In this document: piece after piece, positions 11,499-58,934 of the stretch
How positions within the stretch are numbered: the first letter of the stretch is position 1
How the letters are laid out: each line of letters begins with the position of its first letter
Assembly: GCA_964016885.1 (NCBI GenBank)
Contig: OZ024764.1
Span: forward strand, 23,374,001-23,438,000
Length of the DNA stretch: 64,000 nt
Origin: Eledone cirrhosa
Taxonomy: Eukaryota
Direction: 5' to 3'
Made by a program: the position numbers and the translations under genes
Notes under the pieces: generated by a model
The model's database searches: none
What the model was told of the DNA's origin: nothing
What the model saw: only the letters and a program-made list of their open reading frames with translations

Positions 11499-11643
11499 TT
11501 ACGTCACAAAAAAACTTGACCTTTGACATTGAAGCATGCGCAGTGGTGCAGTTGTCGACTTCCTGTCCACGTGTTAGTCTTCCTACAACAACATTTAGAA
11601 AACATTTCTGTAAATACTAAACACCTGAGACTATAATGTAAGT
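11499..11643 (+). promoter_or_regulatory. Putative promoter and short non-coding first exon of ZNF gene 1
   Basis: TTACGTCA (CRE/ATF-like, 11499), GCATGCGCA (NRF1-like, 11534), ACTTCCTG (ETS, 11558), CACGTG (E-box, 11568), then donor aat|GTAAGT at 11638; conserved in all three cassettes. Confidence 0.6.
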
Positions 11644-12699
11644 ATTATGTCTATTAATATTGTAGATTTAAGCTCACTTTTCACATCACAAATATATATT
11701 TTCTTGTTTGTTTCATTACTGGAAATATAAAATGTTATCGTAATTATCTATATTTTACCTACCTCTAATTAATTAAAGTGAAAACTTTTGTTGTTGCTGA
11801 AAAATAAATTAACAAAACTAAATATTTAAATATTCTAAAGGTCGTTTTTATATTATGTGATGATATAATTAATATATTTTATTACAATTGTATAAATTTA
11901 CAGTAGAATAACGTTGTAAATATGTTTTAAATATATACATAAATAACGTGTGTAAATAACATTATAAATTGCTGGCAATTCCTTGAGAAAGACATTACAA
12001 ATATATTGTCTAAACTGTGTATAATAATATAATTTATTGAACAATAATGATAAAGGAAAGAAAAACACAGTGGGAGATGGCAATTAACCACCAAACGAGG
12101 TAAACATTTTCAACTTTCCCCTTTTTTTTGCTTTGTCCGAGACAACTCAAAATATTCTTCAAGGAACTGGATTTTCCATTCGGTTGGATCGAACGGATTT
12201 TACCATTTATAATCTACGGAGAGGAATAACAGATGTTCGGAGGAAAAAAGAATTGTTTGTGGCAACAACGTAGGGAACCAACCTGGAGCAATTGTATCAC
12301 ACAATTATACTTTCCTCCTTAACATACACTTACAATTTTTCAAAATCAAACCCCCCAAATATAAAATATAAATAATTATAAATGGCGAGGAACCATCCCA
12401 TCTCCCTCTTGAAATAACCTGAATCTATTTATAGTCAGGTGTGACTGAAAGGTCAATCCATACTTCCATTCTATTTCACAGAATTAGAAGTTTTGACCAC
12501 TTGATAGAATTCAGGTCCAGTAATGTAATCACTCCGTAATTGTAAACATCTTGTATCACTATCATTCAGGTTTTGATTTTACTTAAGTCTTGACAATGTT
12601 TTTTTTTTTTTTCTTTTTTTTTACACAAACTCACAATTTCGGTTTTTACTGCGGATTTACCCATGCGAACTATTACACAAACTCACAGCCTTAGACTTT

Positions 12700-14620
12700 G
12701 TATTTCTAGCGTTTTTATTTTCCTTCTCTTTGCATGTTCAGTGCTCTTTCTCTCCCACTGTATTTATCTGCCTCTCACATGACCACACTCCTCTCTACGT
12801 ACTCATCATCTTCTCACTCCTTCTCCACCTTCCAACGCTGGCCCTCTACTGCCGGCTGTTGCCAGCCCGCCACCTGATTGCGCCATCTGTGCCCGCACTA
12901 ACCAGTACTTAAAGACAATTTAAATGTCACCTATGCCACACAAGCTACCACAGAAGCATGTGTCAGCATCACCAAAGCTCAAGCCGAAAGGCTTCAACAC
13001 TGGACCTGTCATCGGTGCCACTTCAGCTCCGTCTATTCCGTGGTTTTGACCAACACTCTACCGACGACTTTGCCACAGCCCCCCAGGGCTTCTCCAAATC
13101 AAAGCTCCTTAGGAGCCCCGATCACAGACCTGGCCTTCGAGTCAACCATCCAATCGAAGATGGTTGGCCTTGAGCAGCTGCTGAGGAATATTGAAGATAT
13201 CGAACCCCATCAAAGTTTCTTCTTACTCAGGAACTACCTGTCTATTCCTAAGCTTCTGTATCTGCTCAGGGTCAGCCCCTCTCACAGATTTCCATCCTGC
13301 CTCCAACGCTTCGACGACCTAATCTTCGAGAGACTCGAGTGTCTGGTCAATGTTAGTAAGTGTTCGTCCCTCTCTCTCCCCTGCTTCCTTTCCTCCACCC
13401 AAGCTTGCAGCATCCTCTCCTCTCCAACATGGACTAGTTCCAACAGGGAGTTGTGTGAAGCTCTCCAGCAATGAAGTGAGTTGGGCTTGTCTCTTCCTGA
13501 GAAGGTGGAGGACAGTCGAAGTCAGTAGAACTTGGGACGGGATACGTTGGAATGCCACCTTCGACTCCCTCTTCGTCCTCTCAGATCAGTTTACAAGGTG
13601 CCGCTTACCATCTGCCAGCGCCAAATACTCCGGTGACTGGGTCGATGCCTTACCCGTGGCCAACGTTGGAGGCCTACTCAGCCTGGATGAACTTCGTGTC
13701 TCCATCACCCTCAGAGTGGGAGCTGACGTCTGCATGGGTTTGAGATGTTGCTAACTCCTCGACTCCACAGGCCTCCACGGTCTTTCTTGCTGCCTGAATG
13801 CCGGCCACTTCAGCCGTCACACGGAGCTAAACTTTATTCTGAAGAGAGCTTTGGCCCGGGCAAACATCTCCTCAGTCTTGGAACCATCTTGGTTGTCCAG
13901 AAGTGACGGCAAAAGACCTGACGGCCTTACCCTGTGCCCCTGGTCGAGAGGCAGGTGCTTAATCTGGGACGTCACTGTTAGTGACTCCTTTGCTCTTTCC
14001 CACATCCTTGATGCTGCGGTAAGGACGAGAGCCACAGCTTCGGCAGACAAGCGGAGTAAGACCCTCAAATACTCTGATCTGTCGGCCAGCTACATTTTTC
14101 AGCCTGTGGCTTTCGAGACGTTTGGGGGAGTCGGGCCGCTGACTGCGAGGTTCCTTTCCTCACTGGCGGCTCGCCTCATAGAGGTAACTGGCGAAATCGC
14201 GAGGGCGCTTGGCTGTTCCAGCACCTCAACCTCGCCATCACCCGAGGTAACACTGCCAGTGTGCTGGCTTGCCTCAAAACTCATTAGAGAGGTTTCCCAG
14301 TACCCCTCGTTGCTGTCTTTTGCTCTGGTGTTGGCTCCGTTGTCCACCCCTTCCTTTACATTTTCTTTAATATTGCAACATTGAAGGAATTTATCTTTCA
14401 TTGTATCATCCTTTATAGTGTTACCGAGGCATTTGTAATGTTATTTATATATTTAAAACATATTTCTTATGTTATTCTACTGTAAATTTATTTATATGCT
14501 CTGTTTATATATTCATTCTGAAGTAACTTATCCACTTGTGTTGATATAAGTGATTCTATGACTTTCCTCTAAGCATTGTGTCATTATATATGTTATTATA
14601 AACGTGAATAAATTGAATTT
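12700..14620 (+). mobile_element. Internally deleted non-LTR retrotransposon with restriction-like endonuclease (CRE clade-like)
   Basis: ORF 13851-14384 GKRPDGLTLCPWSRGRCLIWDVT...KY..L...YIFQPVAFETFG is a PD-(D/E)xK RLE; upstream GLHGLSC..RH zinc-knuckle relic; RT core absent; ends approximate. Confidence 0.8.
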
Positions 14621-14694
14621 ATAGTGTGATAATAACCCTAGGGGTTAACTACACACTTTGAGGCAAGCCAACACACTGGCAGCATTACAACGGG

Positions 14695-14860
14695 TGATGG
14701 TGAGGCTAAGGTGCTTAAATAACCAGGTACCCTCACGGGTATCACCTGACGCCTCTATAAGGTGAGGCTAAGGTGCTGAGATAACCAGGTACTCTTACGG
14801 ATATCACCTGACACCTCAGTAAGGTGAGGCTACGGTGCTGAAATAACCAGGTACCCTCAC
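14695..14860. repeat. ~62-bp tandem repeat (~3 units) derived from an RLE-element 3' end; also 49035-49200
   Basis: ggtgaggctaaggtgct...ataaccaggtaccctcacgg at 14700, 14761 and 14823. Confidence 0.8.
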
Positions 14861-15220
14861 GGAAACGACTAGATTTGTAGAAAAAGTAGGGTGAAAGTAT
14901 ACAAAGAGATGTAGTTTCACAGATCTACTCACACCTCACGTTGGGTGAGAATAATTATTTTTCTTAGAATTCTTGCTATACCCCTTTTCCAGTATTTTTT
15001 CTCTGGACCCCTTAGATACTTGCGATAGACGTTTTATTTCCCAGTATTAGGATTAGGGTTTCCGTTTTCAGGAAGAAAAGTCGATTGCAAACATCTAAGA
15101 GTTCGAGCAATAAAATTAAGGAAAGATAATTATTTCCCAGCCAACTGGAGAAGTGTGTAGCTCTTCTAAACTCCGATAATCCTGTCTCCCACTTCTTTAT
15201 CTACAAATCTAGTTGTTTCC
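14861..15220. mobile_element. MITE-like element with ~21-bp TIRs (also 49202-49561)
   Basis: ggaaacgactagatttgtaga ... tctacaaatctagt(t/c)gtttcc plus sub-terminal inverted segments; no TSD seen. Confidence 0.7.
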
Positions 15221-15239
15221 TGCTACTTTGTTCCCTGGG

Positions 15240-15620
15240 GTATGCCTTAGTATTTGACACTATCTATCTCTCTTACTGCCTAATTAGCAAGAAGTAAATC
15301 TGTCTCATGTGTTCACCTGATTGGTAGGTTATTAGGTGGTTGGTAGGTTTCTTGAAGTGTTGCAAATGGTTAGTTCACTTGCATCACAAAATACAAGAAG
15401 CCTCACTCCTTCATTTCTTGAGCCATAACCATGACCACCATGTACCCCAGTGTATCCATCCTGGAGCTGTCCAACATGACCATGGTAGTCCCCTGCTATT
15501 CTAACTAGGTCTCTGTCCTCTGACATTAAGGTTATCTCTACTTATTCCTTTTCTACATATGGAGCAGGGCCACTTTCCTGAATGGGTCAGGGTCTTCTCT
15601 CCTATCCATTACCACTTTAG
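15240..15620 (-). mobile_element. RTE-clade LINE endonuclease fragment
   Basis: ORF 15332-15526 GDYHGHVG...GVHGGHGYGSRNEG.RLL.FCDA.EL.ICNT, typical of an RTE APE domain. Confidence 0.8.
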
Positions 15621-15804
15621 CTATTGCATAGCACTCAGCAACGAGTTCTGCGCATTCCTTGATTGGTCACTTATACTTATGTTAAGGTATTGTTCTCAAT
15701 ATAAATAACATGAAAATCTCATAGATTTGATATTATGAGAGATAAAGCATTTACTGTGAAAATATAATAGTAAATATAAAGTAATGTGAATACTAAAGGG
15801 TTAA

Positions 15805-18326
15805 TCTAATGTCACTAATAACTACTTTTATCAGTCAGTATAATCTAATGTCACTAATAACTACTTTTATCAGTCAGTATAATCTAATGTCACTAATAAC
15901 TACTTTTATCAGTCAGTATAATCTAATGTCACTAATAACTACTTTTATCTGTCAGTATAATCTAATCTCACTAATAACTACTTTTATCTGTCAGTATAAT
16001 CTAATGTCACTAATAACTACTTTTATCAGTCAGTATAATCTAATGTCACTAATAACTACTTTTATCAGTCAGTATAATCTACTGCCACTAATAACTACTT
16101 TTATCAGTCAGTTTAATCTAATGTCACTAATAACTACTTTTATCAGTCAGTATAATCTAATCTCACTAATAACTACTTTTATCTGTCAGTATAATCTAAT
16201 GTCACTAATAACTACTTTTATCAGTCAGTTTAATCTAATGTCACTAATAACTACTTTTATCAGTCAGTTTAATCTAATATCACTAATAACTACTTTTATC
16301 AGTCAGTATAATCTAATGCCACTAATAACTACTTTTATCAGTCAGTTTAATCTAATGTCACTAATAACTACTTTTATCAGTCAGTTTAATCTAATGTCAC
16401 TAATAACTACTTTTATCAGTCAGTTTAATCTAATATCACTAATAACTACTTTTATCAGTCAGTATAATCTAATGTCACTAATAACTACTTTTATCTGTCA
16501 GTATAATCTAATCTCACTAATAACTACTTTTATCTGTCAGTATAATCTAATGTCACTAATAACTACTTTTATCAGTCAGTATAATCTAATGTCACTAATA
16601 ACTACTTTTATCAGTCAGTATAATCTACTGCCACTAATAACTACTTTTATCAGTCAGTTTAATCTAATGTCACTAATAACTACTTTTATCAGTCAGTATA
16701 ATCTAATCTCACTAATAACTACTTTTATCTGTCAGTATAATCTAATGTCACTAATAACTACTTTTATCAGTCAGTTTAATCTAATGTCACTAATAACTAC
16801 TTTTATCAGTCAGTTTAATCTAATATCACTAATAACTACTTTTATCAGTCAGTATAATCTAATGCCACTAATAACTACTTTTATCAGTCAGTTTAATCTA
16901 ATGTCACTAATAACTACTTTTATCAGTCAGTTTAATCTAATGTCACTAATAACTACTTTTATCAGTCAGTTTAATCTAATATCACTAATAACTACTTTTA
17001 TCAGTCAGTATAATCTAATGCCACTAATAACTACTTTTATCAGTCAGTTTAATCTAATGTCACTAATAACTACTTTTATCAGTCAGTTTAATCTAATGTC
17101 ACTAATAACTACTTTTATCAGTCAGTTTAATCTAATATCACTAATAACTACTTTTATCAGTCAGTATAATCTAATGCCACTAATAACTACTTTTATCAGT
17201 CAGTTTAATCTAATGCCACTAATAACTACTTTTATCAGTCAGTTTAATCTAATGTCACTAATAACTACTTTTATCAGTCAGTTTAATCTAATATCACTAA
17301 TAACTACTTTTATCAGTCAGTATAATCTAATGTCACTAATAACTACTTTTATCAGTCAGTTTAATCTAATATCACTAATAACTACTTTTATCAGTCAGTA
17401 TAATCTAATGTCACTAATAACTACTTTTATCTGTCAGTATAATCTAATCTCACTAATAACTACTTTTATCAGTCAGTATAATCTAATGCCACTAATAACT
17501 ACTTTTATCAGTCAGTTTAATCTAATGTCACTAATAACTACTTTTATCAGTCAGTTTAATCTAATGTCACTAATAACTACTTTTATCAGTCAGTATAATC
17601 TAATGTCACTAATAACTACTTTTATCAGTCAGTTTAATCTAATGTCACTAATAACTGCTTTTATCAGTCAGTATAATCTAATGTCACTAATAACTACTTT
17701 TATCAGTCAGTTTAATCTAATGTCACTAATAACTACTTTTATCAGTCAGTATAATCTAATGTCACTAATAACTACTTTTATCAGTCAGTTTAATCTAATG
17801 TCACTAATAACTACTTTTATCAGTCAGTATAATCTAATGTCACTAATAACTACTTTTATCAGTCAGTATAATCTAATGTCACTAATAACTACTTTTATCA
17901 GTCAGTATAATCTAATGTCACTAATAACTACTTTTATCAGTCAGTATAATCTAATGTCACTAATAACTACTTTTATCAGTCAGTATAATCTAAAGTCACT
18001 AATAACTACTTTTATTAGTCAGTTTAATCTAATGTCACTAATAACTACTTTTATCAGTCAGTATAATCTAATGTCACTAATAACTACTTTTATCAGTCAG
18101 TATAATCTAAAGTCACTAATAACTACTTTTATTAGTCAGTTTAATCTAATGTCACTAATAACTACTTTTATCAGTCAGTTTAATCTAATCTCACTAATAA
18201 CTACTTTTATTAGTCAGTTTAATATAATGTCACTAATAACTACTTTTATCAGTCAGTTTAATCTAATGTCACTAATAACTACTTTTATCAGTCAGTATAA
18301 TCTACTACCACTAATAACTAACCTAT
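15805..18326 (+). repeat. 39-bp satellite array 1 (~65 units)
   Basis: Unit tctaatgtcactaataactacttttatcagtcagtataa; produces the 840-aa MSLITTFISQYNL repeat ORF. Confidence 0.98.
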
Positions 18327-18447
18327 GTTAGGCAGCACATTCTTCACCAAAGAAGGCCTTAGTATTTATTACAGCCCATTTATCAATATAGAAATATTAT
18401 ATGAAATTTGTACTGATGTATTACAAGTTTCTGAGTATCTTATAATG

Positions 18448-18465
18448 TTCTTTTCTTATTTCAGA
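18448..18465 (+). promoter_or_regulatory. Putative splice acceptor of the ZNF exon (equivalents end at 35600 and 54244)
   Basis: ttcttttcttatttcAG|aatacc, pyrimidine tract plus AG, conserved in three cassettes. Confidence 0.55.
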
Positions 18466-19265
18466 ATACCAGAGGACATTGACATTAAAGAGCACGTTAC
18501 ATCAGACATGTCCTCAACATTAACCATTTCTAATGAAAGACACTACCCATCATTTTCAAATAATTTTGAAAACACTCAACACTTTGAAGGGATTTAATAA
18601 TATCACTAAATTTTTCAGTATTAAGCTGCTATTTGGGACATAACTTTGCCCAATCTCATGAAGTTACAATGGAAAGTTTTTAGATAAATATAAAGACTGG
18701 TATGAAAAGGATAAAACACTTTTATATCAGTTGTTTCATCAACAATATTATTTAAAGATTAAAGGAAGCTGTTATACAGTACAGATACAACCTTGTTTAT
18801 ATAAATCTATGGGAGAAATACTGTGAAATATTTCTTGTAAACTCAATAACCCTTCTATTCTTTGCTGTCTGGAATATGTAGAAGATACAAAATAAAGCAG
18901 AAGAAATTTACACATGATTTTGTAAGATCTTCATATATTGACAAAGATGATAGTTGATGGAACTACAGGAGTAGAAATATTTCCATTATTACAGGAATAA
19001 CTAATCAAATGAAAACTAGAAAAATTAGATTCTTCACTGTCTAGAATATGTACAAGATGATTTTATATGTATATTAAACTTGAAGACATCAACAAAACAG
19101 TTTGTATCATCTTTAAATATAAAGAAAGACCAAGTTGATGGAAATATATATCTGGAGGAATATGTTTTAGGAATAATATTATAAACATAAAGAAGAAAAA
19201 TATCCATATATTGCGAGGAGAAAAATATTAAAACTGTGAATTATGTGAGAAACTGAGGTAATTGA

Positions 19266-20315
<1,050 letters not shown>

Positions 20316-20889: not shown

Positions 20890-21060
20890 TGAATTTATAT
20901 TTAACAGGGAGATGTTTTACTGTCCCTACCCTTTTCTCTAGGTTGTCTTGTACCTCTCTCACAGTCCCTCTAGATCTTATATTTAACAGGGAGATCTTTT
21001 ACTCTCCAACCCTTCTATCTCCAGATAGTCTTGTATCTGTCAGTCCCTCTAGATATTACA
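20890..21060. repeat. 82-bp minisatellite (~2 units)
   Basis: tcttatatttaacagggagatcttttact...ttttctctaggttgtcttgtacctctctcacagtccctctaga. Confidence 0.8.
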
Positions 21061-21279: not shown

Positions 21280-21705
21280 TGTAGTAAAGTTTTCACTGTT
21301 GTATCTCTATTTTCTAAATATCTTAATAATGTTTCTCTACTATTTCAGAATATCACATGACCTTGACAGAAAAGAGTCTTTTAAAGACAACAGAAAGATG
21401 TTACATTCAAGTGATATAAACTTGTTTAGTCTGTGGTGAATTATGGTGAAATATTTCTTCTGAATTGAGATAAATAACAACATTTTCCTTTTACACTGTG
21501 GAATATTTACAAGATGATTTTACGTTCTGATTAAACTTTGGATATTTACAAAGGAGTTTTCAAAATATTTGGATATTGACAAAGATGACATTTGATAAAA
21601 TTATGAACAATAGAAATATTTACATCAACATAGGAATATTTTCCAGAAGAGGTGGGAAAATCATTATACCACTAATATTTGTGGTAAAGTATTCTCTCTT
21701 CTTTA
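21280..21705 (+). pseudogene. Decayed ZNF exon relic
   Basis: Acceptor region resembles 18390-18470; contains tcattataccac-taatatttgtggtaaagtattctct, a broken YHCNICGKVFS half-finger. Confidence 0.55.
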
Positions 21706-22314
21706 TATGTAGAACATCTAACTAAACACTTGAACTAACAAACTATTGTGCTATAGAATTGACAAACTTGAGCAATGTTTAATAAATGTTACAGATTTCT
21801 CCAAACTGTCGTTTACTAACTTTAATTTGAAGCTATGTTATCTATATACTACTAAAACTCTGTGATTGTGTCTTGTCTGTAATACAGCTAAAACAGTGCA
21901 TAATGGGGAAATACTTTGAAAAGAATAAAACAAGTTTTGTATAAATTGGGGCACAGGTTCCCAAGAGACGGGGTTTTCTGGGTACCTTCATAAATATAGG
22001 GAGAGAAAGAGATAGTGGTTGTGAGAGAAGATATTTCAGTAAGAAGGTTCACATCCTGACATCTATAGCTGTTAACAAGGAGGTTGGAATTCATTATTAA
22101 ACAAATGTTATACCATCATCACTGTTTTACATCAGTTTTTCCACGCTGGCATGGGTTAGACGAGTTATCCTGTTGTAAGCAATGCCAGGTCAGGTGACCA
22201 CGTGTTGCTCCTACAGAACCAATTTTGGTTTGGTTTCTACAGCTGGATGACCTTCCTAGCACCAACCTTATTTACATTGATTACTGGGTGCTTTTTACTA
22301 TCTCACCAACTCGA

Positions 22315-23010
22315 CCACTTCACAGTGTGGGCTGGGTACTTTTTTACTTTTTGTCATGACACCTACATGACCACTTTACAGTGAGTACTGGGTACTTTTT
22401 GTTGTGACACCTACATGACCACTTTACAGTGAGTACTGGGTACTTTTTGTTGTGACACCTACATGAACACTTTACAGTGTCAATTGGGTACTTTTTGTCG
22501 TGACACCGACATGACCACTTCACAGTGTGGATTGGGTACTTTTTGCCATGACACCTACATGACCACTTTACAGTGTGGACTGGGTACTTTTTGTCATGAC
22601 ACCTATGTGACCACTTTACAGTGTGGACTGGGTACTTTTTGTTGTGACACCTACATGAACACTTTACAGTGTCAATTGGGTACTTTTTGTCGCAACACCG
22701 ACATGACCACTTTACAGTGTGGATTGGGTACTTTTTGCCATGACACCTACATGACCACTTTACAGTGAGTACTGGGTACTTTTTATTGTGACACCTACAT
22801 GACCACTTTACCGGGTGGACTGGGTACTTTTTGTTGTCACACTTACATGACCACTTTACAGTGTGGACTGGGTACTTTTTGTCATGACACCTATGTGACC
22901 ACTTTACAGTGTGGACTGGGTACTTTTTGTTGTGACACCTACATGACCACTTTACAGTGTGGACTGGCTACTTTTTGTCATGACACCTACACAACCTCTT
23001 TATAGTGTTG
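22315..23010. repeat. 48-bp minisatellite
   Basis: atgaccactttacagtgtggactgggtactttttgttgtgacacctac repeated ~14 times. Confidence 0.92.
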
Positions 23011-23104
23011 GCAGCGAAATCTAATGCACCAGCTTCAGTAATCAGAAGATACATAATATACATATATACACACACACACACAAACAAAAATATATATATA
23101 TATT

Positions 23105-25178
23105 CAGTGGTACCTTGACTTACAAGTGTCCCAACTAATAAGTTTTTCGAGATACGAGCCCTCTCTCGGCTGATTTTTTGCGTTGAGTTCCAGAGTAAAA
23201 TTCGGGTTACGAGTCAGCTTCAGATGCCCCACCACGAGTTGCCATAGTGACCGCCACAGGCAATACCGTAATACCCGCCCAGCATCCCATGGCTTCGAAG
23301 AAAGTGAGACGAAGGACAGTTCTGAGAAGAAGAAGCAGATGATGTGTATTGAATTAAAGAAAGAAATTATAGAAAAACATGACCAAGGTGTGTGTGTAGT
23401 GGACTTGGTGAAGTAGTACGAGGGTAGCACTTCTACGATATGTACCATACTGAAGTAGAAGGACTTGATAAAGGCTATAACCCCAGCTAAGGGTGGTAAA
23501 ATAATTTCTAAACAGCGGACATCTATCCATGAAAATGTGGAAAAGCTGCTGATGGTGTGGTTGAAGGAGAAGCAGCTCGCAAGAGATACTGTGATGAAGA
23601 TTATAATATGTGAGAAGGCACGAGCTATTTACGCTGATTTGCTGCAGCAGACCCCAAGTACTTCTACGGACGAGGCATCGGCAAGCCCTTTAATGCCAGT
23701 CAGTCGGGGTTGGTTTGAGAATTTTAAAAAGAGGACCGGCATTCACTCCGTTGTCAGGAATGGTGAGGCAGCGAGCGCGGATATGAAGGCAGCTGAGGAT
23801 TACCTCAAAACCTTTGCCGGAATTATAGCAGCCAAAGGATACATCCCTCAGCAAGTCTTTAACTGTGATGAAACAGGACTTTTTTGGAAGAAGATGCCAA
23901 GGAGGACTTATATAACGGCAGAGGAGAAGAGGATGCCTGGCCACAAACCCATGAAGGATAGGCTAACCCTCGCACTGTGTGCCACTGAGCGGCGAGTGTA
24001 AGATTAAGTTGCCACTCGTTTATCATTCAGAAAACTCCAGAACCTTTAAGTCACATAAGATTCTGAAAGAAAAACTGCAGGTTATGTGGAGGGAAAACCC
24101 GAGGTCATGGGTCACCAGGTAGTTCTTTGTGGAGTGGGTGAATTTGGTCTTTGGTCCTGACGTTAAAAAATATCTCCAGGAAAATAACCTACCCCTGTAA
24201 ACCCTTCTTGTCCTACATAATGCACCTGCTCACTCACCCACCCTCGAAGAGTTCAAGTTTATAAAGGTCCTCTACCTTCCACCAAACACCACCCCTATCC
24301 TACAGCCCAAGGACCAGCAGGTTCTTTCTAATTTCAAGAAGCTCTTCACCAAGCACCTGTTCAGTCGCTGCTTTGAAGTGACGGGGAGCACAAACTTCAC
24401 CCTTGAGAGGTCTGGAAGGACCATTATAACATCGTGATATGCCTCAGAATTATCGATATGACATGGCAGAGTCTTACAAAGAGGACCTTGACCTCTACAT
24501 GGAAGAAGCTGTGGCCTGAAGTTGTGTCTAAAACAGACTTTGAAAGACTCGAACCCGAAGCGGCAGTGGTGGAGGAGATTGTACCCCTCGGTAAGTCCAT
24601 GGGCCTGGACATGGATGAAGGTGACATCAACGAGCTCATCGAGGAGCACCCCGAGGAACTGACAACGAAGGAATTAAAGGAGCTACAGACACAGCAACAC
24701 ACGGAGTTTTTGCAGGAAATAGGTGACACAGAGGAGGTTATCTCAACAAGTGAGATGAAACAAACCTCATTAGACAGGTTTTTATCGAAAATCCCTGCAG
24801 ATAAAAGTGAGGAAAGCGTGGCGAAAAGGGGCAAAAATCAGCGAATAAGATTCAGTTATTCAGTTCATCCTTTCTCCTCCGTCAACATCCTCAAGTCGTC
24901 TGATCTCCAAGATAGATGCTGTACACTATACTTAATAAAACCAGTTTATTGTAGTACATTCTATTGTATTGTATTTTTATATACAATATTTGTCATTTAT
25001 AAGTACATTTTTCTTATTTAAAAACACGTAACAAAACAAACTGTGGTTTTTTGGGGGTCTGGAACGGATTAACGGCATTTTATTTTATTTCAGTGGGGAA
25101 AATTGATTTGAAATACGAGTAATTTAAGTTACGAGGTCCTCCACGGAACAAATTAAACTCGTAAGTCAAGGTACCACA

Positions 25179-25179: not shown

Positions 25180-25210
<31 letters not shown>

Positions 25211-27008: not shown

Positions 27009-27142
27009 TTACGTCACAAAAAAAACATTGAAGCATGCGCAGTGGTGCAGTTGTCGACTTCCTGTCCACGTGTTAGTCTTCCTACAACATCATTTAGAAA
27101 ACATTTCTGTAATTACTAAACACCTGAGACTATAATGTAAGT
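27009..27142 (+). promoter_or_regulatory. Putative promoter and non-coding exon 1 of ZNF gene 2
   Basis: Same TTACGTCA / GCATGCGCA / ACTTCCTG / CACGTG cluster; donor GTAAGT at 27137. Confidence 0.6.
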
Positions 27143-29885: not shown

Positions 29886-29919
29886 TACAAATCGAGTCGT
29901 TTCCTGCTACTTTGTTCCC

Positions 29920-30547: not shown

Positions 30548-32671
30548 CCCTTTAGTATATAAACTGGCCATATCTGGCCAGAATTCTCCCACATCTTTCT
30601 GTTCAAACTGGCCGTAATTAAATAATAATAATAATAATGAAATTATTGTGTACAGTGCTCAGGTGCACTACAACTCATCAAAGGTGCATGTATAGTACAT
30701 AGAATAATGTACAAATGTCAGGAAAATGAACAGTGCATGAGTCATGATATAATAACAATAATGAAATATTGTGTACAGTGCCCAGGTGCACCACAACTCA
30801 TCAAAAAAGTGCATGTACAGTACATAGGGCAATGCACAAACATCAGTAAAATGAACAGTGCACGAGTCATGATACACACGTGTGCATGTGTATGGAAGGG
30901 GTACATTAGGTGTAGTTTTGGCGTATTTCGGGAAGCTTGAGTGTCTTAAAGGATGCAGTGTCTCGGCAGCTAACAACTGACGCAGGCAGTTTGTTCCCTA
31001 CTTCAGCAACTCTGAGCGTGAAAAAATGTCTACGAAAGTCATGGGAGCTGTGCTGTTTTCTGATCTTGTAGGCATGTCCACATGTGTTAGACACATGGAG
31101 ATCAAAGAGGCGCTCAGGGTTGCAATTGGCGAGATGGTTAAAAACTTTGTGGGTATTCACCAAGTCCATTGCCAGACGTCAGAGCTTCAATGAATTCATG
31201 CCCAGGGAAGCAAGGCGTTCATAGTATGGTAGGTGTCTGATGGAGGGTATGTGCTTGGTTGCACGTCTCTGAACAATTTCCAGGAGGTCAATGTTCTGAG
31301 CAAGATAGGGGTTCCAGACTGATGATGCGAATTCCAAGTGTGGTCGTACCATAGCTGTATACAGTTTTAAATAGATGGCTGGAGAACGGCTAACAAAGGT
31401 CTTGCTGAGTGATGCCAAGACACCCTCGGCCTTCTTGACAATCTTAGAGACATGCTTTGTCCAACGCAAATCGTTGCTGACAGTAATGCCCAGGTCACGT
31501 TCACAAGAGGACTTTTTGATATCAGTGTTGTGGAGGGAGTATGTGGACGCTGGATTTTTCCTTCCAAAATGCATGGTGGTACACTTGTCCACAGCCAGCT
31601 TCAGTTGCCAGTCTGTGATCCATTGCTGCATTGTGTCCAGGTCTGATTGTAGGAAAGAGTTGTAAATTTCAGGATCAGTCCTTTTGATTTCAAGGTACAG
31701 CTTGATGTCATCTGCATATTTCAGTACCGTGGCATTCTGTAAGTTGGCATCTATGTCATTAATATATGCCACAAACAAAAGAGGACCAAGAACAGATCCC
31801 TGTGGTAGACCAGATGACATCTCATATGGTGAAGAATGCTGTCCTAGAACCGTGACTACTTCCTTTCGGCTGAGAATGAAGGATTTCAGCCAGTCGAAAA
31901 GATCATCCGTCACACCCATTGCAGAGAGTTTTGCCATAAGTCTTTTGTGTGGCACAGAATTAAAAGCCTTAGCAAAGTCAAGGTAAACAACATCCACCCA
32001 TGAGCCGCTGTCAGTGATCTGGGTGATGTCCTCAAGGAACTCGATAAGCTGATCACAGCAGCTGGAGTTAGGGATAAATCCAAACTGTGAGGACCGGATG
32101 AGGCTGTGAGAGCTCCAGAAGTTCCAAAGTGTTTCTCTGACACAGGATTCCATCAGTTTGGCCTTACAGCTAGTAAGACTGACTGGACGATAGTTGACAG
32201 GTGACATGCGGTTGCCCTTTTTGAACAGGGGAATGACACTGGCAGTTTTCCACTGCTCCGGAGTAGCACCATTGTTGAGACAGTATTGAAAGAAGAAAGA
32301 AAGCTGGCGCAAAAGGAAATACCCGCCACATTTGAGAAGCAGGTATGTCACACCATCAAGACCAGGGGAGGCATAGTTGCGCTTATTCTTAAGGTGACGT
32401 CGCAACATTGCAGGTGTAAATTCCATAGTTGTTATGGAATTTGATGTTAGAGATGGTGGAGATGGTACATTCTGGTTTTCAACAGTAAAAATACTTACAT
32501 AGCACTCAGCAACGAGTTCTGCGCATTACTTGATTGGTCACTTGTACTTATGTTAAGGTATTGTTCTCAAAATAAATAACATGAAAATCTCATAGATTTG
32601 ATATTATGAGAGATAAAGCATTTACTGTGAAAATATAATAGTAAATATAAAGTAATGTGAATACTAAAGGG
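30548..32671. mobile_element. piggyBac-type MITE split by a CR1 insertion
   Basis: TTAA|ccctttagtat at 30544 and atactaaaggg|TTAA at 32661-32675. Confidence 0.7.
30620..32547 (-). mobile_element. CR1-group LINE, 5'-truncated, RT domain (ORF 31179-32426)
   Basis: DVVYLDFAKAFNSVPH, GLPQGSVLGPLLF, YADD, ERDLGI, VRPHLEFASSVWNPY; (ATT)n tail at ~30620-30640; one CGA>TGA stop at 31179. Confidence 0.92.
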
Positions 32672-32675
32672 TTAA

Positions 32676-35080: not shown

Positions 35081-35148
35081 GTTAGTCAGCACATTCTTCA
35101 CCAAGGAAGGCCTTAGTATTTATTACAGTCCATTTATCAATATAGAAA

Positions 35149-35520
35149 CAGACACCCGGATGTGGCGCATGCGCAAACTGAGCACACAACACACACACAG
35201 AAACAAAATGGCGTAGGACAGAAGAAAGGAAAGGCACAGAAACAAAGAAGGAATCCCCAGTCACTGAAGAGGTCACAGAGTGTGTGACGAAAGGACTATG
35301 ACTATATATAAACAACTATCTGGTTGTGGAACCAACCAACCAGAATTTATAAGTTTGTAGATTTGTAAATTTATAAATTTATAAATATATAATAAATTGA
35401 AGTGAAAGCAACTGGTGCGTGTGTTTCTTATTGGCAACATGACCCTCCCAAAGTATAACAATATCGGTTTCAACACACGATTTAAGATAAAGAAACTTGC
35501 TAAACAAATTCAGAAAACGA
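35149..35520 (+). mobile_element. 372-bp insertion unique to cassette 2, LTR-like
   Basis: Flanked by aatatagaaa (35139-35148, 35521-35530); single copy of this 10-mer at the empty site near 18385. Confidence 0.7.
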
Positions 35521-36417: not shown

Positions 36418-37113
36418 ATGTCGAAAAATATAGTAAAATCACCATTCCACTGTGATATCTGTGGTAAATCATTCTCTCGTAGTAATCAGCTAACTACTCC
36501 CAAACGTATTCATACAGGAGAGAAGCCTTATCACTGTGAAATCTGTGGTAAATCATTCAGTTACAGTAGTAGCATCAGAGTTCACAAGCAAATTCATACA
36601 GGAGAGAAGCCACATCACTGTGACATCTGTAGTAAATCATTCTCTTGCAGAGATAGCTTAACTAATCACAAACGTATTCATGCAGCAGCGAAGCCACATC
36701 ACTGTGACATCTGTGGTAAATCATTCTCTTGCAGAGATAGCTTAACTAATCACAAACGTATTCATACAGGAGAGAAGCCACATCACTGTGACATCTGTGG
36801 TAATTCATTCTCTCATAGTAATAACCTAACTCTCCACAAACGTACTCATACAGGAGAGAAGCCATATCACTGTGACATCTGTGGTAAATCATTCGCTGAC
36901 AGAAGTTGCTTAGCTACCCACAGACGTACTCATACAGGAGAGAAGCCATATCACTGTGACATCTGTGGTAAATCATTCTCTCATAGTAATCACCTAACTC
37001 TCCACAAACGTACTCATACAGGAGAGAAGCCATATCACTGTGACATCTGTGGTAAATCATTCTCTCAAAGTGGTAACTTAACCAAGCATGTGCGTATTCA
37101 TACAGAAGTTTAG
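36418..37113 (+). CDS. C2H2 zinc-finger protein, 8 fingers (finger 1 has His>Pro)
   Basis: 231-aa intact ORF with TGEKP linkers; one AAAKP linker. Confidence 0.9.
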
Positions 37114-38389: not shown

Positions 38390-38820
38390 TAGAGATGTAG
38401 TAAAGTTTTCACTGTTGTATCTCTACTTTCTAAATATCTTTATAATGTTTCTCTACTATTTCAGAATATCACATGACCTTGACAGAAAAGAGTCTTTTAA
38501 AGACAACAGAAAGATGTTAAATTCAAGTGATATAAACTTGTTTAGTCTGTGGTGAATTATGGTGAAATATTTCTTCTGAATTCAGATAAATATTTTCCTT
38601 TTTCACTGTCTGGAATATTTACAAGATGATTTTACATTCTGATTAAACTTTAGATATTTACAAAGAGTTTTCAAAATATTTGGATATTGACAAAGATCAC
38701 ATTTGGTAAAAATTATGAACAATAGAAATATTTACATTAACATAGGAATATTTTCCAGTAGAGATGGGAAAATCATTATACCACTGTAATATTTGTGGTA
38801 AAGTATTCTCTCTTCTTTAT
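38390..38820 (+). pseudogene. Decayed ZNF exon relic
   Basis: ttt cca gta gag atg gga aaa tca tta tac cac tgt aat att tgt ggt aaa gta ttc tct = FPVEMGKSLYHCNICGKVFS, then no His pair. Confidence 0.6.
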
Positions 38821-45762: not shown

Positions 45763-45851
45763 CTTAGCTGTTCTATTTTAATTACATTTACTGATTTCAA
45801 CTTTCATTTTTTTATTACAAACTTTACATAATTTAATTCCGTAAAAATATT

Positions 45852-45984
45852 TTACGTCACAAAAAAATCATGAAGCATGCGCAGTGGTGCAGTTGTCGAC
45901 TTCCTGTCCACGTGTTAGTCTTCCTACAACAACATTTAGACAACATTTCTGTAAATACTAAACACCTGAGACTATAATGTAAGT
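45852..45984 (+). promoter_or_regulatory. Putative promoter and non-coding exon 1 of ZNF gene 3
   Basis: Same motif cluster; donor GTAAGT at 45979. Confidence 0.6.
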
Positions 45985-52204: not shown

Positions 52205-52208
52205 TTAA

Positions 52209-54106
52209 TCTAATGTCACTAATAACTACTTTTATCAGTCAGTTTAATCTAATGTCACTAATAACTACTTTTATCTGTCAGTATAATCTAATGTCACTAA
52301 TAACTACTTTTATCTGTCAGTTTAATCTAATGTCACTAATAACTACTTTTATCTGTCAGTATAATCTAATGTCACTAATAACTACTTTTATCAGTCAGTA
52401 TAATCTAATCTCACTAATAACTACTTTTATCAGTCAGTATAATCTAATGTCACTAATAACTACTTTTATCTGTCAGTTTAATCTAATGTCACTAATAACT
52501 ACTTTTATCAGTCAGTATAATCTAATCTCACTAATAACTACTTTTATCAGTCAGTATAATCTAATGTCACTAATAACTACTTTTATCAGTCAGTATAATC
52601 TAATCTCACTAATAACTACTTTTATCAGTCAGTATAATCTAATGTCACTAATAACTACTTTTATCAGTCAGTATAATCTAATCTCACTAATAACTACTTT
52701 TATCAGTCAGTATAATCTAATCTCACTAATAACTACTTTTATCAGTCAGTATAATCTAATCTCACTAATAACTACTTTTATCAGTCAGTATAATCTAATC
52801 TCACTAATAACTACTTTTATCAGTCAGTATAATCTAATCTCACTAATAACTACTTTTATCTGTCAGTATAATCTAATGTCACTAATAACTACTTTTATCA
52901 GTCAGTATAATCTAATCTCACTAATAACTACTTTTATCAGTCAGTATAATCTAATGTCACTAATAACTACTTTTATCTGTCAGTTTAATCTAATGTCACT
53001 AATAACTACTTTTATCAGTCAGTATAATCTAATCTCACTAATAACTACTTTTATCAGTCAGTATAATCTAATCTCACTAATAACTACTTTTATCAGTCAG
53101 TATAATCTAATCTCACTAATAACTACTTTTATCTGTCAGTTTAATCTAATGTCACTAATAACTACTTTTATCTGTCAGTATAATCTAATGTCACTAATAA
53201 CTACTTTTATCAGTCAGTATAATCTAATCTCACTAATAACTACTTTTATCTGTCAGTTTAATCTAATGTCACTAATAACTACTTTTATCTGTCAGTATAA
53301 TCTAATGTCACTAATAACTACTTTTATCAGTCAGTATAATCTAATCTCACTAATAACTACTTTTATCAGTCAGTATAATCTAATCTCACTAATAACTACT
53401 TTTATCAGTCAGTATAATCTAATCTCACTAATAACTACTTTTATCAGTCAGTATAATCTAATCTCACTAATAACTACTTTTATCAGTCAGTATAATCTAA
53501 TCTCACTAATAACTACTTTTATCTGTCAGTATAATCTAATGTCACTAATAACTACTTTTATCTGTCAGTATAATCTAATGTCACTAATAACTACTTTTAT
53601 CAGTCAGTATAATCTAATGTCACTAATAACTACTTTTATCTGTCAGTATAATCTAATGTCACTAATAACTACTTTTATCAGTCAGTATAATCTACTGCCA
53701 CTAATAACTACTTTTATCAGTCAGTTTAATCTAATGTCACTAATAACTACTTTTATCTGTCAGTATAATCTAATGTCACTAATAACTACTTTTATCAGTC
53801 AGTTTAATCTAATGTCACTAATAACTACTTTTATCAGTCAGTTTAATCTAATGCCACTAATAACTACTTTTATCAGTCAGTTTAATCTAATGTCACTAAT
53901 AACTACTTTTATCTGTCAGTATAATCTAATGTCACTAATAACTACTTTTATCAGTCAGTTTAATCTAATGTCACTAATAACTACTTTTATCTGTCAGTAT
54001 AATCTAATGTCACTAATAACTACTTTTATCAGTCAGTATAATCTAATGCCACTAATAACTACTTTTATCAGTCAATTTAATCTACTGTCACTAATAACTA
54101 ACCTAT
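52209..54106 (+). repeat. 39-bp satellite array 3 (~49 units)
   Basis: Same unit; 652-aa repeat ORF. Confidence 0.98.
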
Positions 54107-55058
54107 GTCAGTCAGCACATTCTTCACCAAAGAAGGCCTTAGTATTTATTACAGTCCATTTATATATATAGAAATATTATATGAAATTTGTACTGATGTA
54201 TTACAAGTTTCTGAGTATCTTATAATGTTCTTTTATTATTTCAGAATACCAGAGGACATTGGCATTAAAGAGCACATTACATCAGACATATCCTCAACAT
54301 TAACCATTTCTAATGAAAGACACTATCCATCATTTTCAAATAATTTTGAAAACACTCAACACTTTGAAGGGATTTAGTAATATAACTAAATTTCTCAGTA
54401 TTAAGCTGCTATTTGGAACATAACTTTGCACAATTTCATGAAGTTATAATGGAAAGTTTTTAGATACATATAAAGACTGGTATGAAAAGGATAAAACACT
54501 TTTATATCAGTTGTTTCATCAACACCATTATTTAAAGATTAAAGGAAGCTGTTATACAGAACAGATACAACCTTGTTTATATAAATCTATGGGAGAAATA
54601 CTGTGAAATATTTCTTGTAAACTCAATAACACTTCTATTCTTTGCTGTCTGGAATATGTAGAAGATACAAAATAAAGCAGAAGAAATTTACAAATGATTT
54701 TGTAAGATCTTCATATATTGACAAAGATGATAGTAGATGGAACTACAGGAGTAGAAATATTTCCATTATTACAGGAATAACTAATCAAATAAAAACCAGA
54801 AAAATTAGATTCTTCACTGTCTGGAATATGTACAAGATGATTTTATATGTATATTAAACTTGAAGACATCTACAAAACAGTTTGTATCATCTTTAAATAT
54901 AAAGAAAGACCAAGTTGATGGAAATATATCTGGAGGAATATATTTTAGGAATAATATTATAAACATAAAGAAGAAAAATATCCATATATTGCGAGGAGAA
55001 AAATATTAAAACTGTGAATTATGTGAGAAACTGAGGTAATTGATATCTTTTAGGAGAT

Positions 55059-56594
55059 ATGTCGAAAAATATAGTAAAATCACCATTCCACTGTGATATC
55101 TGTGGCAAATCATTCTCTCATAGTAATCACCTAACTACTCACAAACGTATTCATACAGGAGAGAAGCCTTATAAGTGTGATATCTGTAACAAATCATTCA
55201 GTCACAGTAGTAGCGTCAGAGTTCACAAACGTATTCATACAGGAGAAGAGCCATTCCACTGTGACATCTGTGGTAAATCATTCACTTATAGTCATCAACT
55301 AACTACTCACAAACATATTCATACAGGAGAGAAACCATATCACTGTGACATCTGTGGTAAATCATTCTCTCAGAGTCATCACCTAACTACTCACAAACCT
55401 ATTCATACAGGAGAGAAGCCTTATCACTGTGATGTCTGTGATAAATCATTCAGCCAAAGTAGTAGCTTAACTCATCACAAACGTCTTCATACAGGAGAGA
55501 AGCCATATCACTGTGACATCTGTGGTAAATCATTCTCTAAATGTGGTAACTTAACTACCCACAAACGTATTCATACAGGAGAGAAGCCACATCACTGTGA
55601 CATCTGTGGTAAATCATTCAGTCACAGAAATACCTTAACTAAACACCAACGTATTCATACAGGAGAGAAGCCATATCACTGTGATATCTGTGGTAAATCA
55701 TTGTCTCGTAGTGATACCTTAACTACCCACAAACGTACTCATACAGGAGAGAAACCATATCACTGTGACATCTGTAGTAAATCATTATCTGACAGAAGTA
55801 GCTTTGTTAAACACCATCGTATTCATACAGGAGAGAAGCCATATCACTGTGATATCTGCGGTATTTCATTCTCTCAGAGAAATCACCGAATGGCTCACGA
55901 ACGTATTCATACAGGAGAAAAACCATATCACTGTGATATCTGTGGTAAAACATTCTCTGTAAATCATAATCTAACTACTCACAAACGTATTCATACAGGA
56001 GAGAAGCCATATCATTGTGACATCTGTGGTAAATCATTTTCTCGTAGTCACCTAACTACTCACAAACGTATTCATACAGGAGAGAAGCCATATCACTGTG
56101 ATATCTGTGATAAATCATTCTCTCATAGTAAAACCTTAACTACCCACAAATGTACTCATACAGGAGAGAAGCCATATCATTGTGACATCTGTGGTAAATC
56201 ATTCGCTGACAGAACTAGCTTAGCTACCCACAAACGTACTCATACAGGAGAGAAGCCATATCACTGTGACATCTGTGGTAAATCATTCTCTCATAGTAAT
56301 ACCTTAGCTATCCACAAACGTACTCATACAGGAGAGAAGCCATATCATTGTGACATCTGTGGTAAATCATTCGCTGACAGAACTAGCTTAGCTACCCACA
56401 AACGTACTCATACAGGAGCGAAGCCATATCACTGTGACATCTGTGGTAAATCATTCTCTCATAGTAATACCTTAGCTACCCACAAACGTACTCATACAGG
56501 CGAGAAGCCATATCCCTGTGACATCTGTGGTAAATCATTCAGTCACCGTAGTAACTTAACTACCCACAAACGTACTCATACAGGAGTACTCTGA
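55059..56594 (+). CDS. C2H2 zinc-finger protein, 18 fingers
   Basis: 511-aa ORF; finger 12 has a one-residue deletion; ends TGVL* after a deletion in the ancestral last finger. Confidence 0.93.
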
Positions 56595-57289
56595 CAGTAG
56601 TACCTTAACCAAGCATGTGTGTATTCATACAGAAGTTTAGCTGTATCAATATCAAACTCATTACATCATACTACAACAACAACAACAATTGTGTAGATCC
56701 ATCATCCTGGCTAAAACTGGGGATAACCTTGTAGGTTTTACCTATGACAGGGATCATAAACACCAGGTTTCCATTTTTGAAGCAGTGTTTGAAGATTTTG
56801 TGTAAATTAAAGTTTTTCACATTAAACTTTGATTTATTATACTTTAACAGGTAAGATATATATTTGTATTTTTAGTAAATGTTGGGAACTTCTGTAACTT
56901 AAACCTGCCAATAAAATGAAAACTTTTGTTGTTGCTAGTCAGACATTGATATTAATTCTATTGTCCTGTACATTGTCTCAAATATCACAGATTAAACAGA
57001 TTTTAACAATAACAACAGAAATCAATAACTTGTAAGCCTAATATCTAGCTTCCATTTTAACTATTTGATATTGTTGTTCCTCTCCTATCTCTTCAGGTCT
57101 TTTAGATTTCAACTTCTATCTACTGTACTATTCCATCACCAAGGCAACATTCATCTGGCTGGCAGCTTACATCAACTACAGATCTCATCAGTGGTTCACA
57201 ACAGGCTGTCTGAAAGAAACTTCCAGATATCTTCTATGTCAGAACTATCAATCTCCTCCTCCTTATCATATGTATCATGTAGAACATCT

Positions 57290-57945
57290 CTGAATTTGTA
57301 TTTAACAGGGAGATCTTTTACTGTCCCTACCCTTTTCTCTAGGTTGTCTTGTACCTCTCTCACAGTCCCTCTAGATCTTATATTTAACAGGGAGATCTTT
57401 TACTGTCCCTACCCTTTTCTCTAGGTTGTCTTGAGCCTCTCACAGTCCCTCTAGATTTTATATTTAACAGGGAGATCTTTTACTATCCCTACCCTTTATT
57501 CAGGTTGTCTTGTACCTCTCTCACAGTCCTTCTAGATCTTATATTTAACAGGAAGATCTTTTATTATCTCTACCCTTTATTTAGGTTGCCTTGTACCTCT
57601 CTCACAGTCCCTCTAGATCTTATATTTAACAGGGAGATATTTTACTATCTCTACCCTTTTCTCTAGGTTGTCTTGTACCTCTCTCACAGTCCCTCTAGAT
57701 CTTATATTTAACAGGGAGATATTTTACTATCTCTACCCTTTTCTCTAGGTTGCCTTGTACCTCTCTCACAGTCCCTCTAGATCTTATATTTAACAGGGAG
57801 ATGTTTTACTGTCCCTACCCTTTTCTCTAGGTTGTCTTGTACCTCTCACAGTCCCTGTAGATCTTATATTTAACAGGGAGATCTTTTACTCTCCAACCCT
57901 TCTATCTCCAGATAATCTTGTATCTGTCAGTCCCTCTAGATCTTA
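57290..57945. repeat. 82-bp minisatellite (~8 units)
   Basis: tttaacag at 57301, 57383 and onward. Confidence 0.92.
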
Positions 57946-58159
57946 CACCTAGTATCTAGTCTATGTTGAGTGGTACGTCCTTCTCCAGTAAAGGAGTTAA
58001 TATTCCCAACCATCTGTCTATCCTGTTTTCTGATGAGAATGAAGTCAATCTAGTTTATCTCTTCACCTGATTGAAGTAACTAGATCAAGTAACTACATGG
58101 TTTCCTGTAAGTTAGTGTTGCAGTGTTTGAGTCACCATGTAAGGTTTATATCTATTAAT

Positions 58160-58595
58160 ATAGAGATGTAGTAAAGTTTTCACTGTTGTATCTCTACTTT
58201 CTAAATATCTTAATAATGTTTCTCTACTATTTCAGCATATCACATGACCTTGACAGAAAAGAGTCTTTTAAAGACAACAGAAAGATGTTACATACAAGTG
58301 ATATAAACTTGTTTAGTCTGTGGTGAATTATGGTGAAATATTTCTTCTGAATTGAGATAAATAACAACATTTTCCTTTTTCACTGTCTGGAATATTTACA
58401 AGATGATTTTACATTCTGATTAAACTTTGGATATTTACAAAGGAGTTTTCAAAATGTTTGGATATTGACAAAGATCACGTTTGGTAAAATTATGAACAAT
58501 AGAAATATCTAGATCAACATAGGAATATTTTCCAGAAGAGATGGGAAAATCATTATACCACTGTAATATTTGTGGTAAAGTATTCTCTCTTCTTT
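58160..58595 (+). pseudogene. Decayed ZNF exon relic (partial extra copy at 60810-60975)
   Basis: FPEEMGKSLYHCNICGKVFS at ~58528-58590. Confidence 0.6.
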
Positions 58596-58934
58596 ATATG
58601 TAGAACATCTAACTAAACACTTTAACTAACAAACTATTGTGCTATAGAATTGACAAACTTGAAGAATGTTTAATAAATGTTACAGATTTCTCCAAACTGT
58701 CGTTTACTAACTTTAATTTGAAGCTATATTATCTATATACTACTAAAACTCTGTGATTGTGTCTTGTCCGTAATTTAATACAGCTAAAACAGTGCATAAT
58801 GGGGAAATACTTTGAAAGGAATAAAACAAGTTTTGTATAAATTGGAGCACAGGTTCCCAAGATACGGGGTTTTCTGGGTACCTTCATAAATATAGGGAGA
58901 GAAAGAGATAGTGGTTGTGAGAGAGTGGGAGCTG

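Follow-up and report, generated by a model that had tools for sequence, protein, structure and literature searches.

The C2H2 zinc-finger (ZNF) genes of coleoid cephalopods lie in multi-megabase clusters that expanded by lineage-specific tandem duplication (Albertin 2022, PMC9068888; Holzinger 2025, PMC12513265; PMC9795677), and the portions of these papers available to us give gene counts, trees and expression, with no unit anatomy, finger-level selection or intronic satellites in them. Holzinger 2025 gives as the next step the search for cephalopod C2H2 families of recent duplication and for the sites that they bind, and Wells 2023 (PMC10547256) predicts binding of transposable elements (TEs) by octopus ZNFs. 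Finger-number change in ZNF genes is covered by PMC2443715, a mouse cluster on Chr4 is described with 38-47 distinct fingerprint arrays per strain (PMC12575710, whose main text contains the word 'satellite' 0 times), and a regulatory role of satellite arrays interspersed with ZNF genes has already been proposed (PMC3018141, citing Eichler 1998, a study also referenced by PMC12220107). Here we describe a 64,000-nt window of the Eledone cirrhosa genome (contig OZ024764.1, hereafter C25; C25:23374001-23438000; coordinates without prefix count from the first letter of the window) that belongs to an array of about 200 finger-only C2H2 genes. At a probability of roughly 75%, we read this array as growing and reshuffling by unequal recombination under selection at the base-contacting residues, with a 39-bp satellite (39-mer) carried along as a passenger.

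About 200 near-identical zinc-finger cassettes on one contig

Three open reading frames (ORFs) in the window, starting at 19284 (gene A), 36418 (gene B) and 55059 (gene C), encode 12, 8 and 18 fingers, all of the C2H2 type (finger 1 of B has His replaced by Pro and finger 12 of C is short by one codon), and the scaffolds that surround them diverge pairwise by 3.0% (A-B), 2.3% (A-C) and 2.5% (B-C). An earlier note on this DNA had placed the three starts and counted the fingers correctly, but took the cassettes for a triplication, which is ruled out by the copy number on C25: exact patterns of 23-27 nt count 200 acceptors and 181 donors, all of the first 100 listed for each being on C25, so that the window holds three of about 200 copies. 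Reversed-pattern controls gave 0 matches, and the copies are therefore not due to chance. Similarly, a search with the leader (untranslated region) of gene A returned 40 scored matches, all 40 on C25 at 96-100% identity, and 96 of 97 left junctions of the satellite fall at C25:19.19-23.88 Mb. The remaining junction, on C10, was rejected as an orphan satellite, being a dispersed end of a miniature inverted-repeat transposable element (MITE) with 0 39-mer units.

Spot samples place the edges of the array at about 19.125 and 23.9 Mb of C25, a span of ~4.8 Mb, in which units of 15-25 kb have been copied singly and in multi-gene blocks, with inversions, and occur in both orientations. We sampled 81 acceptor loci of the about 200, leaving out of the cassette counts one locus without an acceptor (L020) and one whose match is a decayed acceptor (L064). 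Scaffolds of these copies diverge by 2.8% on average, whatever the distance between them (rho 0.03). The nearest relative of a copy may be as close as 15 kb or as far off as 1.85 Mb, and offsets of ~216 kb or ~1.23 Mb recur in several pairs, an indication that multi-gene blocks were duplicated.

The array is not uniform. Five truncated copies (L005, L014, L017, L045, L054) have an acceptor and a partial leader, with neither satellite nor finger start, and the next exon 1 follows within 3-4 kb. Two gaps at C25:19.87-19.93 and 20.41-20.48 Mb (L105-L107, L110, L111, L154-L158) are occupied by unrelated 32-, 262-, 40- and 19-bp repeats and also hold an older, ~82% similar 22-finger ZNF like that at the right edge (L129). 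An exact pattern that includes a single-nucleotide polymorphism (SNP) of cassette A matches 2 copies only.

A probable two-exon gene encoding fingers only

We mapped four sequencing runs to L086, a paralogue with a one-unit satellite, and found one contig of run X2 that links position 4993 to 9160, skipping 4,166 bases between GT and AG. Position 9160 coincides with the acceptor that the sequence had predicted, and on the other side of the joint stands a GTAAGT donor with equivalents at 11637, 27136 and 45978 of the window. Because the 39-mer lies within the stretch skipped between exon 1 and the finger exon, it is probably intronic. Each gene most likely has two exons, a short non-coding one and a second that contains both leader and fingers, separated by an intron of 3-9 kb, a model seen in L086 and extended from it to the remaining paralogues. 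In most copies the 39-mer stands between a TTAA-flanked MITE and the final 168 bases of the intron. The parts of the three window genes, with exons and intron as predicted and the 39-mers as variable-number tandem repeats (VNTRs), are as follows.

11526..11637, + strand: non-coding exon 1 of gene A, corresponding to the exon end in L086; its start is approximate and the donor GTAAGT follows at 11638
11638..18464, + strand: intron of gene A, 6.8 kb, containing a retroelement fragment, a 62-mer, a MITE remnant and the 39-mer
15802..18320, + strand: 39-bp VNTR of gene A, probably intronic, 64.6 units (Tandem Repeats Finder, TRF)
18465..19283, + strand: exon 2 leader of gene A, 819 nt, with 17 upstream ATGs
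19284..20315, + strand: ORF of gene A, 343 aa, 12 C2H2 fingers and no other Pfam domain
27025..27136, + strand: exon 1 of gene B (start approximate)
32673..35074, + strand: 39-bp VNTR of gene B, 61.6 units (TRF)
36418..37113, + strand: ORF of gene B, 231 aa, 8 fingers (exon 2 starts at 35601)
45867..45978, + strand: exon 1 of gene C (start approximate)
52206..54115, + strand: 39-bp VNTR of gene C, 48.9 units (TRF)
55059..56594, + strand: ORF of gene C, 511 aa, 18 fingers (exon 2 starts at 54245)

At least five C2H2 fingers with TGEKP-type linkers thus stand within one exon. The frame ahead of the ATG is closed by in-frame stops and exon 1 is joined directly to the finger exon; given the closed frame, the protein has no KRAB- or FiNZ-like domain. 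A Pfam scan of the ORFs returned finger models only (PF00096, PF13465) and no effector domain, an absence with which a minor coding exon inside the intron stays compatible. PR/SET domains (PF21549) gave 14 matches among 21 scored candidates, none of them on C25. The exon-2 leader was rejected as a coding N-terminal spacer: its frame closes after 43 codons, and it has no homologue (in a weak search) and no Pfam match.

The leader recurs in deletion forms of 817, 729, 653, 466 and 210 nt, at least one of which arose by deletion between short internal repeats. The 210-nt form, present in 15 of 75 genes, has lost most of the upstream ATGs and retains two. A candidate second acceptor, CTTTTAG-TAG, lies at 19268-19283 just before the ATG, and its use would bypass the upstream ATGs; no joint to it was found among the splice-joint rows listed for L086.

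Finger arrays are diverse and their contact residues apparently selected for change

ORFs with a start were recovered at 75 loci, the acceptor loci without a start match (L005, L014, L017, L019, L045, L054) being left out of these counts. Fifty-nine of the ORFs are full-length, i.e. they reach the standard C-terminus, and have 8-25 fingers (median 14); they amount to 58 distinct proteins and 52 distinct fingerprint arrays. Among all 75 ORFs, 72 encode distinct proteins, and 916 fingers carry 191 fingerprints. Diversity extends to the youngest copies: in pairs less than 1% apart the fingerprint arrays differ in 13 of 20 cases, by early stops or by gain or loss of whole fingers (the pairs are not independent), as in L056/L074 (627 vs 315 aa) and L043/L077 (399 vs 315 aa). 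L120, the closest paralogue of gene A, lies 2.6 Mb off and is 99.1% identical around the leader, and it has one additional finger and two changed contact residues.

To compare substitution classes we placed 560 unique fingers on a spanning tree, leaving out the duplicate L035 (from the linkage sets as well) and 52 fingers that are not full 84-bp units. The ratio of nonsynonymous to synonymous change (pN/pS) was 1.4-1.9 at the contact positions -1, 2, 3 and 6, by contrast with 0.11-0.13 at zinc ligands and core and about 0.5 in the linkers; synonymous changes numbered 29 of 242, against 18% expected (binomial p 0.006). A codon model, fitted to the full finger set, gave an omega of 3.2 for contact, 0.23 for core and about 0.6 for linker positions, with twice the log-likelihood difference about 49 versus omega 1. 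These patterns argue for apparent selection for change at the base-contacting residues.

The relationships of individual fingers suggest that fingers are also exchanged between paralogues. Fingers A10 and A11 have nearest neighbours in another gene (C15 and C17, 2-3 nt apart), and 76 of 169 shared fingers stand at different positions in their arrays. A subfamily of eight genes (L041, L114, L047, L057, L068, L012, L032, L050) has an N-terminal half in which as many as 14 fingers, nearly identical to one another (SKNTKLTRH, fingerprint KTKR), are joined by altered linkers, and two of the four giant satellite blocks described below precede KTKR-type genes; by a rough recognition code these fingers would read a trinucleotide-type repeat.

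Several observations weigh against our reading of the array. Splicing is supported by one contig of X2, a run without an RNA record, whose short side measures 30 letters, and the joint is absent from run X1 despite deep X1 coverage of the paralogue. Translation would be disfavoured by the 14-17 ATGs that precede the ORF in the common 817-nt leader; 16 of the 75 ORFs terminate early; and omega is about 1 in the codon model at positions that are neither contact nor core. Omega can be inflated by recombination between fingers, and the selection test used a tree built from the same data. Finally, the number of identical fingers that genes 2-3% apart have in common (157 of 1602 pairs) does not exceed the expectation from common descent, so that exchange between paralogues is not separable from gain and loss in an ancestral array.

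Part of this would also be expected if the array were mostly neutral, a collection of decaying copies produced by runaway segmental duplication in repeat-rich chromatin next to a large satellite block. The early stops and upstream ATGs, the tolerance of leader deletions of 80-610 bp, the omega of about 1 at non-structural positions and the adjoining block of a 48-bp satellite (48-mer) of at least 670 kb would all fit such a view. It is nevertheless unlikely when set against the constraint on the core (omega 0.11-0.23) and linkers (about 0.5-0.6), the excess above 1 at contact positions, the 59 full-length ORFs and the existence of a spliced form (the one X2 contig).

A private satellite that spans three orders of magnitude

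The 39-mer has 9,893 exact 35-nt matches and is private to the array, in which all 38 matches of a rare-variant 39-mer pattern lie. It is present at 75 of the 81 sampled acceptors and absent at six, of which L059 has a full ORF. Arrays in sampled cassettes range from 1 to 120 units (median 12.5). In four copies, however, the satellite forms a giant block, measuring at least 81 kb (near 19.43-19.52 Mb), 59 kb (20.50-20.56 Mb), 64 kb (20.74-20.81 Mb) and about 166 kb (21.41-21.57 Mb). Samples taken inside these blocks are 78-98% satellite. Three of them are bracketed by listed donors and acceptors, giving introns of 90, 71 and 172 kb, and an open finger ORF lies downstream of every one. The four genes belong to three lineages, and each sister gene also has a long array, which fits runaway growth that depends on length; gene A, with 65 units, is sister to L120, with about 1,650. 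Across paralogues the 39-mer thus runs from 0 to about 4,000 units.

The earlier note had estimated ~65/62/49 units for the 39-mer and ~2/5/8 for an 82-bp repeat (82-mer), in agreement with the measured 64.6/61.6/48.9 and about 2/4.8/8.0, and had given each cassette three variable tandem arrays. All three are present, and to them must be added copy-number-variable arrays of 48-, 62-, 71-, 73- and 125-bp units. Co-location with the ZNF genes, which it had proposed as a check for both satellites, holds for the 39-mer and in part for the 82-mer, which is found mostly in the array and also outside it: C25:7.47 Mb has 38 copies, and C2 and C4 have two units apiece. At the first of these sites (L121, C25:7.466-7.476 Mb), 11.6 Mb from the array, the 82-mer copies adjoin a decayed finger array and an acceptor like the second one of the cassette; an array of 82-bp period at C25:18.1 Mb proved unrelated. 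Albertin 2015 is reported to have noted that the C2H2 scaffolds of octopus are enriched in a tandem repeat of 70-90 bp and to have drawn the parallel to human 19p12; the 82-mer would match it in size. The 48-mer is scattered over C1, C2 and further contigs (11,161 matches), forms short arrays in every cassette spacer and makes up a block of at least 670 kb that abuts the array on its left at C25:18.45-19.124 Mb (L133-L136, L139-L149, L159, L176-L178; the samples are all 48-mer). Elsewhere on C25, 13 of 16 spot samples hold a tandem array of more than 200 bp, and VNTRs are therefore background on this contig.

We then asked if the satellites are working parts of the system, either as hotspots at which unequal exchange and finger shuffling are promoted or as arrays to which the encoded proteins bind, both of which the earlier note had entertained. 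In their favour are the privacy of the 39-mer, its position 168 bp from the acceptor in most copies and its presence at most acceptors, and satellites likewise intersperse a human ZNF cluster (PMC3018141). The four-gamete test failed for 81% of the 63 closest SNP pairs across the 39-mer versus about 63% without an array between them, a comparison that involves three SNPs only. By contrast, SNP linkage crossed the 39-mer, finger array and 82-mer without a step (with r2 close to its minimum along the whole unit, power is low): mean r2 across the 39-mer was 0.049-0.055 (1-2.5 kb), no lower than the 0.047-0.052 for pairs 0.1-1 kb apart with no array between. The distance-matrix correlation across the 39-mer was 0.30, not reduced relative to plain scaffold halves (0.07-0.24). 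The length of the 39-mer and the number of fingers were unrelated (rho 0.14, p 0.30, n=56), array lengths showed no correlation with each other or with finger number (rho 0.14, 0.02, -0.04; n=56), and full ORFs are found beside arrays of 0, of 1-3 and of over 1,500 units. Moreover, unequal exchange needs no satellite, because the units share 15-25 kb at 97% identity. As for binding, a single invariant 39-mer cannot serve 52 different fingerprint arrays as a common target; a scan of 250 four-finger windows with a rough one-to-one recognition code placed the 39-mer and 82-mer no better than shuffles (score 3.45 vs 2.97-3.85), the code being too crude for a negative. A working role for the satellites is, on this evidence, improbable.

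A more elaborate variant, in which an effector-less library would regulate itself, the intronic satellite acting as a dial on expression (from 1 to about 4,000 units, in introns of 3-172 kb) and some members such as the KTKR genes binding tandem repeats, possibly the array's own, to close a feedback between satellite and fingers, is in our view quite improbable.

Copy number and giant blocks could also have been inflated by assembly error. The neighbouring copies L009/L010, identical and 15 kb apart, and L034/L035, with the same protein, agree within each pair in proteins and satellite counts and are either very recent duplications or local assembly errors; the giant blocks were sampled only, and blocks of 59-166 kb are longer than ordinary accurate reads. 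Such error is very improbable as a general account, given the distinct proteins of 72 of 75 copies at a mean divergence of 2.8%, the variant spectra particular to each giant block, and the sampled densities, which predict about 10,300-11,100 exact 35-mers against the 9,893 counted. Lastly, a protein of 13-residue repeats encoded by the 39-mer, as might be read from three long + strand open frames of 656-844 codons and 174 units without a stop in the window, has next to no chance and is refuted as a conserved coding frame by stops in 46 of 3,418 units and 74/75-bp spacings that break the frame 169 times, the open frame being incidental (only 5 of 117 single changes create a stop, all five are found in other copies, and the array is skipped in the spliced form).

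Other features of the window

Immediately upstream of exon 1 of gene A are promoter-like motifs that we take to be CRE-, NRF1- and ETS-like. Broken transposons populate the cassettes, among them a Tc5/pogo-type transposase, a reverse-transcriptase fragment (in B and C, not A) and others. The remaining features of the window, with LTR standing for long terminal repeat, are the following.

12902..14384, + strand: broken non-LTR retroelement fragment, duplicated along with the cassette; no Pfam match, presumably of endonuclease type
15664..15805, no strand assigned: right portion of a ~200-bp MITE with TTAA ends and 11-bp inverted repeats, presumably piggyBac-type; left border of the 39-mer
20895..21058, + strand: 82-bp repeat of gene A, ~2 units (~160 bp; BLAST, one full unit matched, no TRF call)
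21349..21730, + strand: decayed exon-2 leader paralogue that includes an acceptor-like site and the remains of a finger (further copies at 38465 and 58236)
22345..23008, + strand: 48-bp spacer VNTR of a genome-wide family
23104..25021, + strand: broken Tc5/pogo-type transposase in the spacer (PF03221; copies also near 8100-9600 and 62100-64000)
31179..32525, - strand: reverse-transcriptase fragment in the intron of gene B (PF00078; in C at 50439-51932; A without)
35138..35520, no strand assigned: ~382-bp dispersed-element insertion in the array-to-acceptor interval of gene B, common to L066, L069 and L073
37740..38134, + strand: 82-bp VNTR of gene B, 4.8 units (TRF)
57299..57945, + strand: 82-bp VNTR of gene C, 8.0 units (TRF)
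61346..64000, + strand: spacer with 48-mer and pogo-type element before the next gene

The left repeat of the MITE was found in 42 of 73 sampled cassettes. The decayed leader paralogue is 74% identical to the leader over 318 nt (score 169 versus a shuffled maximum of 82). Positions 1-7810 hold a tandem duplication of spacer, ~3.5-3.7 kb, with 48- and 71-mer arrays and a broken transposase without Pfam match, presumably hAT-like. At the other end, where a further cassette had been thought to begin at ~61350, the sequence is the transposon spacer listed above; exon 1 of the next gene lies ~1.5 kb and its 14-finger ORF ~7.6 kb past the window end.

Discussion

We propose that unequal recombination across 15-25 kb of 97% identical sequence would drive the birth-and-death growth of a young ZNF array, in which fingers may be gained, lost and exchanged by misaligned pairing in the 84-bp register, within and between paralogues. 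Purifying selection would keep the fold while diversifying selection acts on the contact residues; the proteins, once translated, would bind DNA, and new specificities would be retained, young repeats being the likeliest targets by analogy. The 39-mer may have had a single origin in the intron of the founder, with neutral changes of length and the longest arrays growing fastest, and such length-dependent growth could have led to at least three independent expansions to 59-166 kb. VNTR change would on this account be passive and heavy-tailed. The earlier note's idea of a generator of DNA-binding specificities accordingly keeps its duplicated array, its many finger arrays and its excess of change at contact codons, and loses the role given to the satellites.

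The same note had called the locus the best candidate for an undescribed system, which goes too far, as satellite-interspersed ZNF clusters and fast-diverging fingerprint arrays are published for mammals (PMC3018141, PMC12575710). What seems new is the combination of about 200 effector-less paralogues within 3%, finger-level selection and a private intronic minisatellite that varies over three orders of magnitude. Our literature searches turned up no account of this array, nor of any cephalopod ZNF cluster with an intronic satellite; Albertin 2015 and supplementary data may bear on this claim. The array is a recently duplicated C2H2 family of the kind to which Holzinger 2025 directs attention, resolved per copy, and with copy-resolved paralogues within 3% and contact codons under apparent positive selection the idea of an arms race with transposons becomes directly testable. 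It also offers a natural series for the birth of a satellite, one intronic 39-mer of 0 to about 4,000 units in near-identical genes.

Like the young KRAB-ZFP clusters on mouse Chr4 (Bruno 2025, PMC12575710), the array consists of large segmental duplications that carry transposons, coding genes and pseudogenes; unlike them, it has about 200 copies, no KRAB exon and a private intronic minisatellite. It resembles the human 19p12 KRAB-ZNF cluster with its beta-satellite (Eichler 1998, cited in PMC3018141) in that ZNF genes and tandem-repeat blocks are interleaved, the blocks here too recurring with the genes, and differs in that the 39-mer is intronic, confined to the array and present in 0 to about 4,000 units. 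With the FiNZ-ZNF genes of zebrafish Chr4q (Wells 2023, PMC10547256) it shares a layout of two exons (probable here), hundreds of clustered young paralogues and positive selection at base-contacting residues (here at helix positions -1, 2, 3 and 6, subject to the recombination caveat), whereas exon 1 encodes the FiNZ domain in zebrafish and is non-coding here. The homogeneous 84-bp units, with variation in contact codons and copy number, recall the finger minisatellite of PRDM9 (PMC3890296), from which the array is set apart by the lack of PR/SET on C25 and by diversity across paralogues, not alleles. As in the Drosophila Y-loop genes (PMC6508621), satellite DNA makes up most of the intron in the giant copies; Y-loop introns reach megabases, unlike the 71-172 kb found here alongside near-identical paralogues with introns of 3-9 kb. 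Judged by its sequence, the array is outside the KRAB, FiNZ and PRDM9 families. A protein search gave at best 61% identity among the best 120 of 3,821 matches, none with a cephalopod name. Squid C2H2 genes form no phylogenetic subclusters (Albertin 2022, PMC9068888), by contrast with the single family within 3% described here; with its tandemly duplicated paralogues clustered over megabases, the array nonetheless fits the C2H2 clusters of coleoids.

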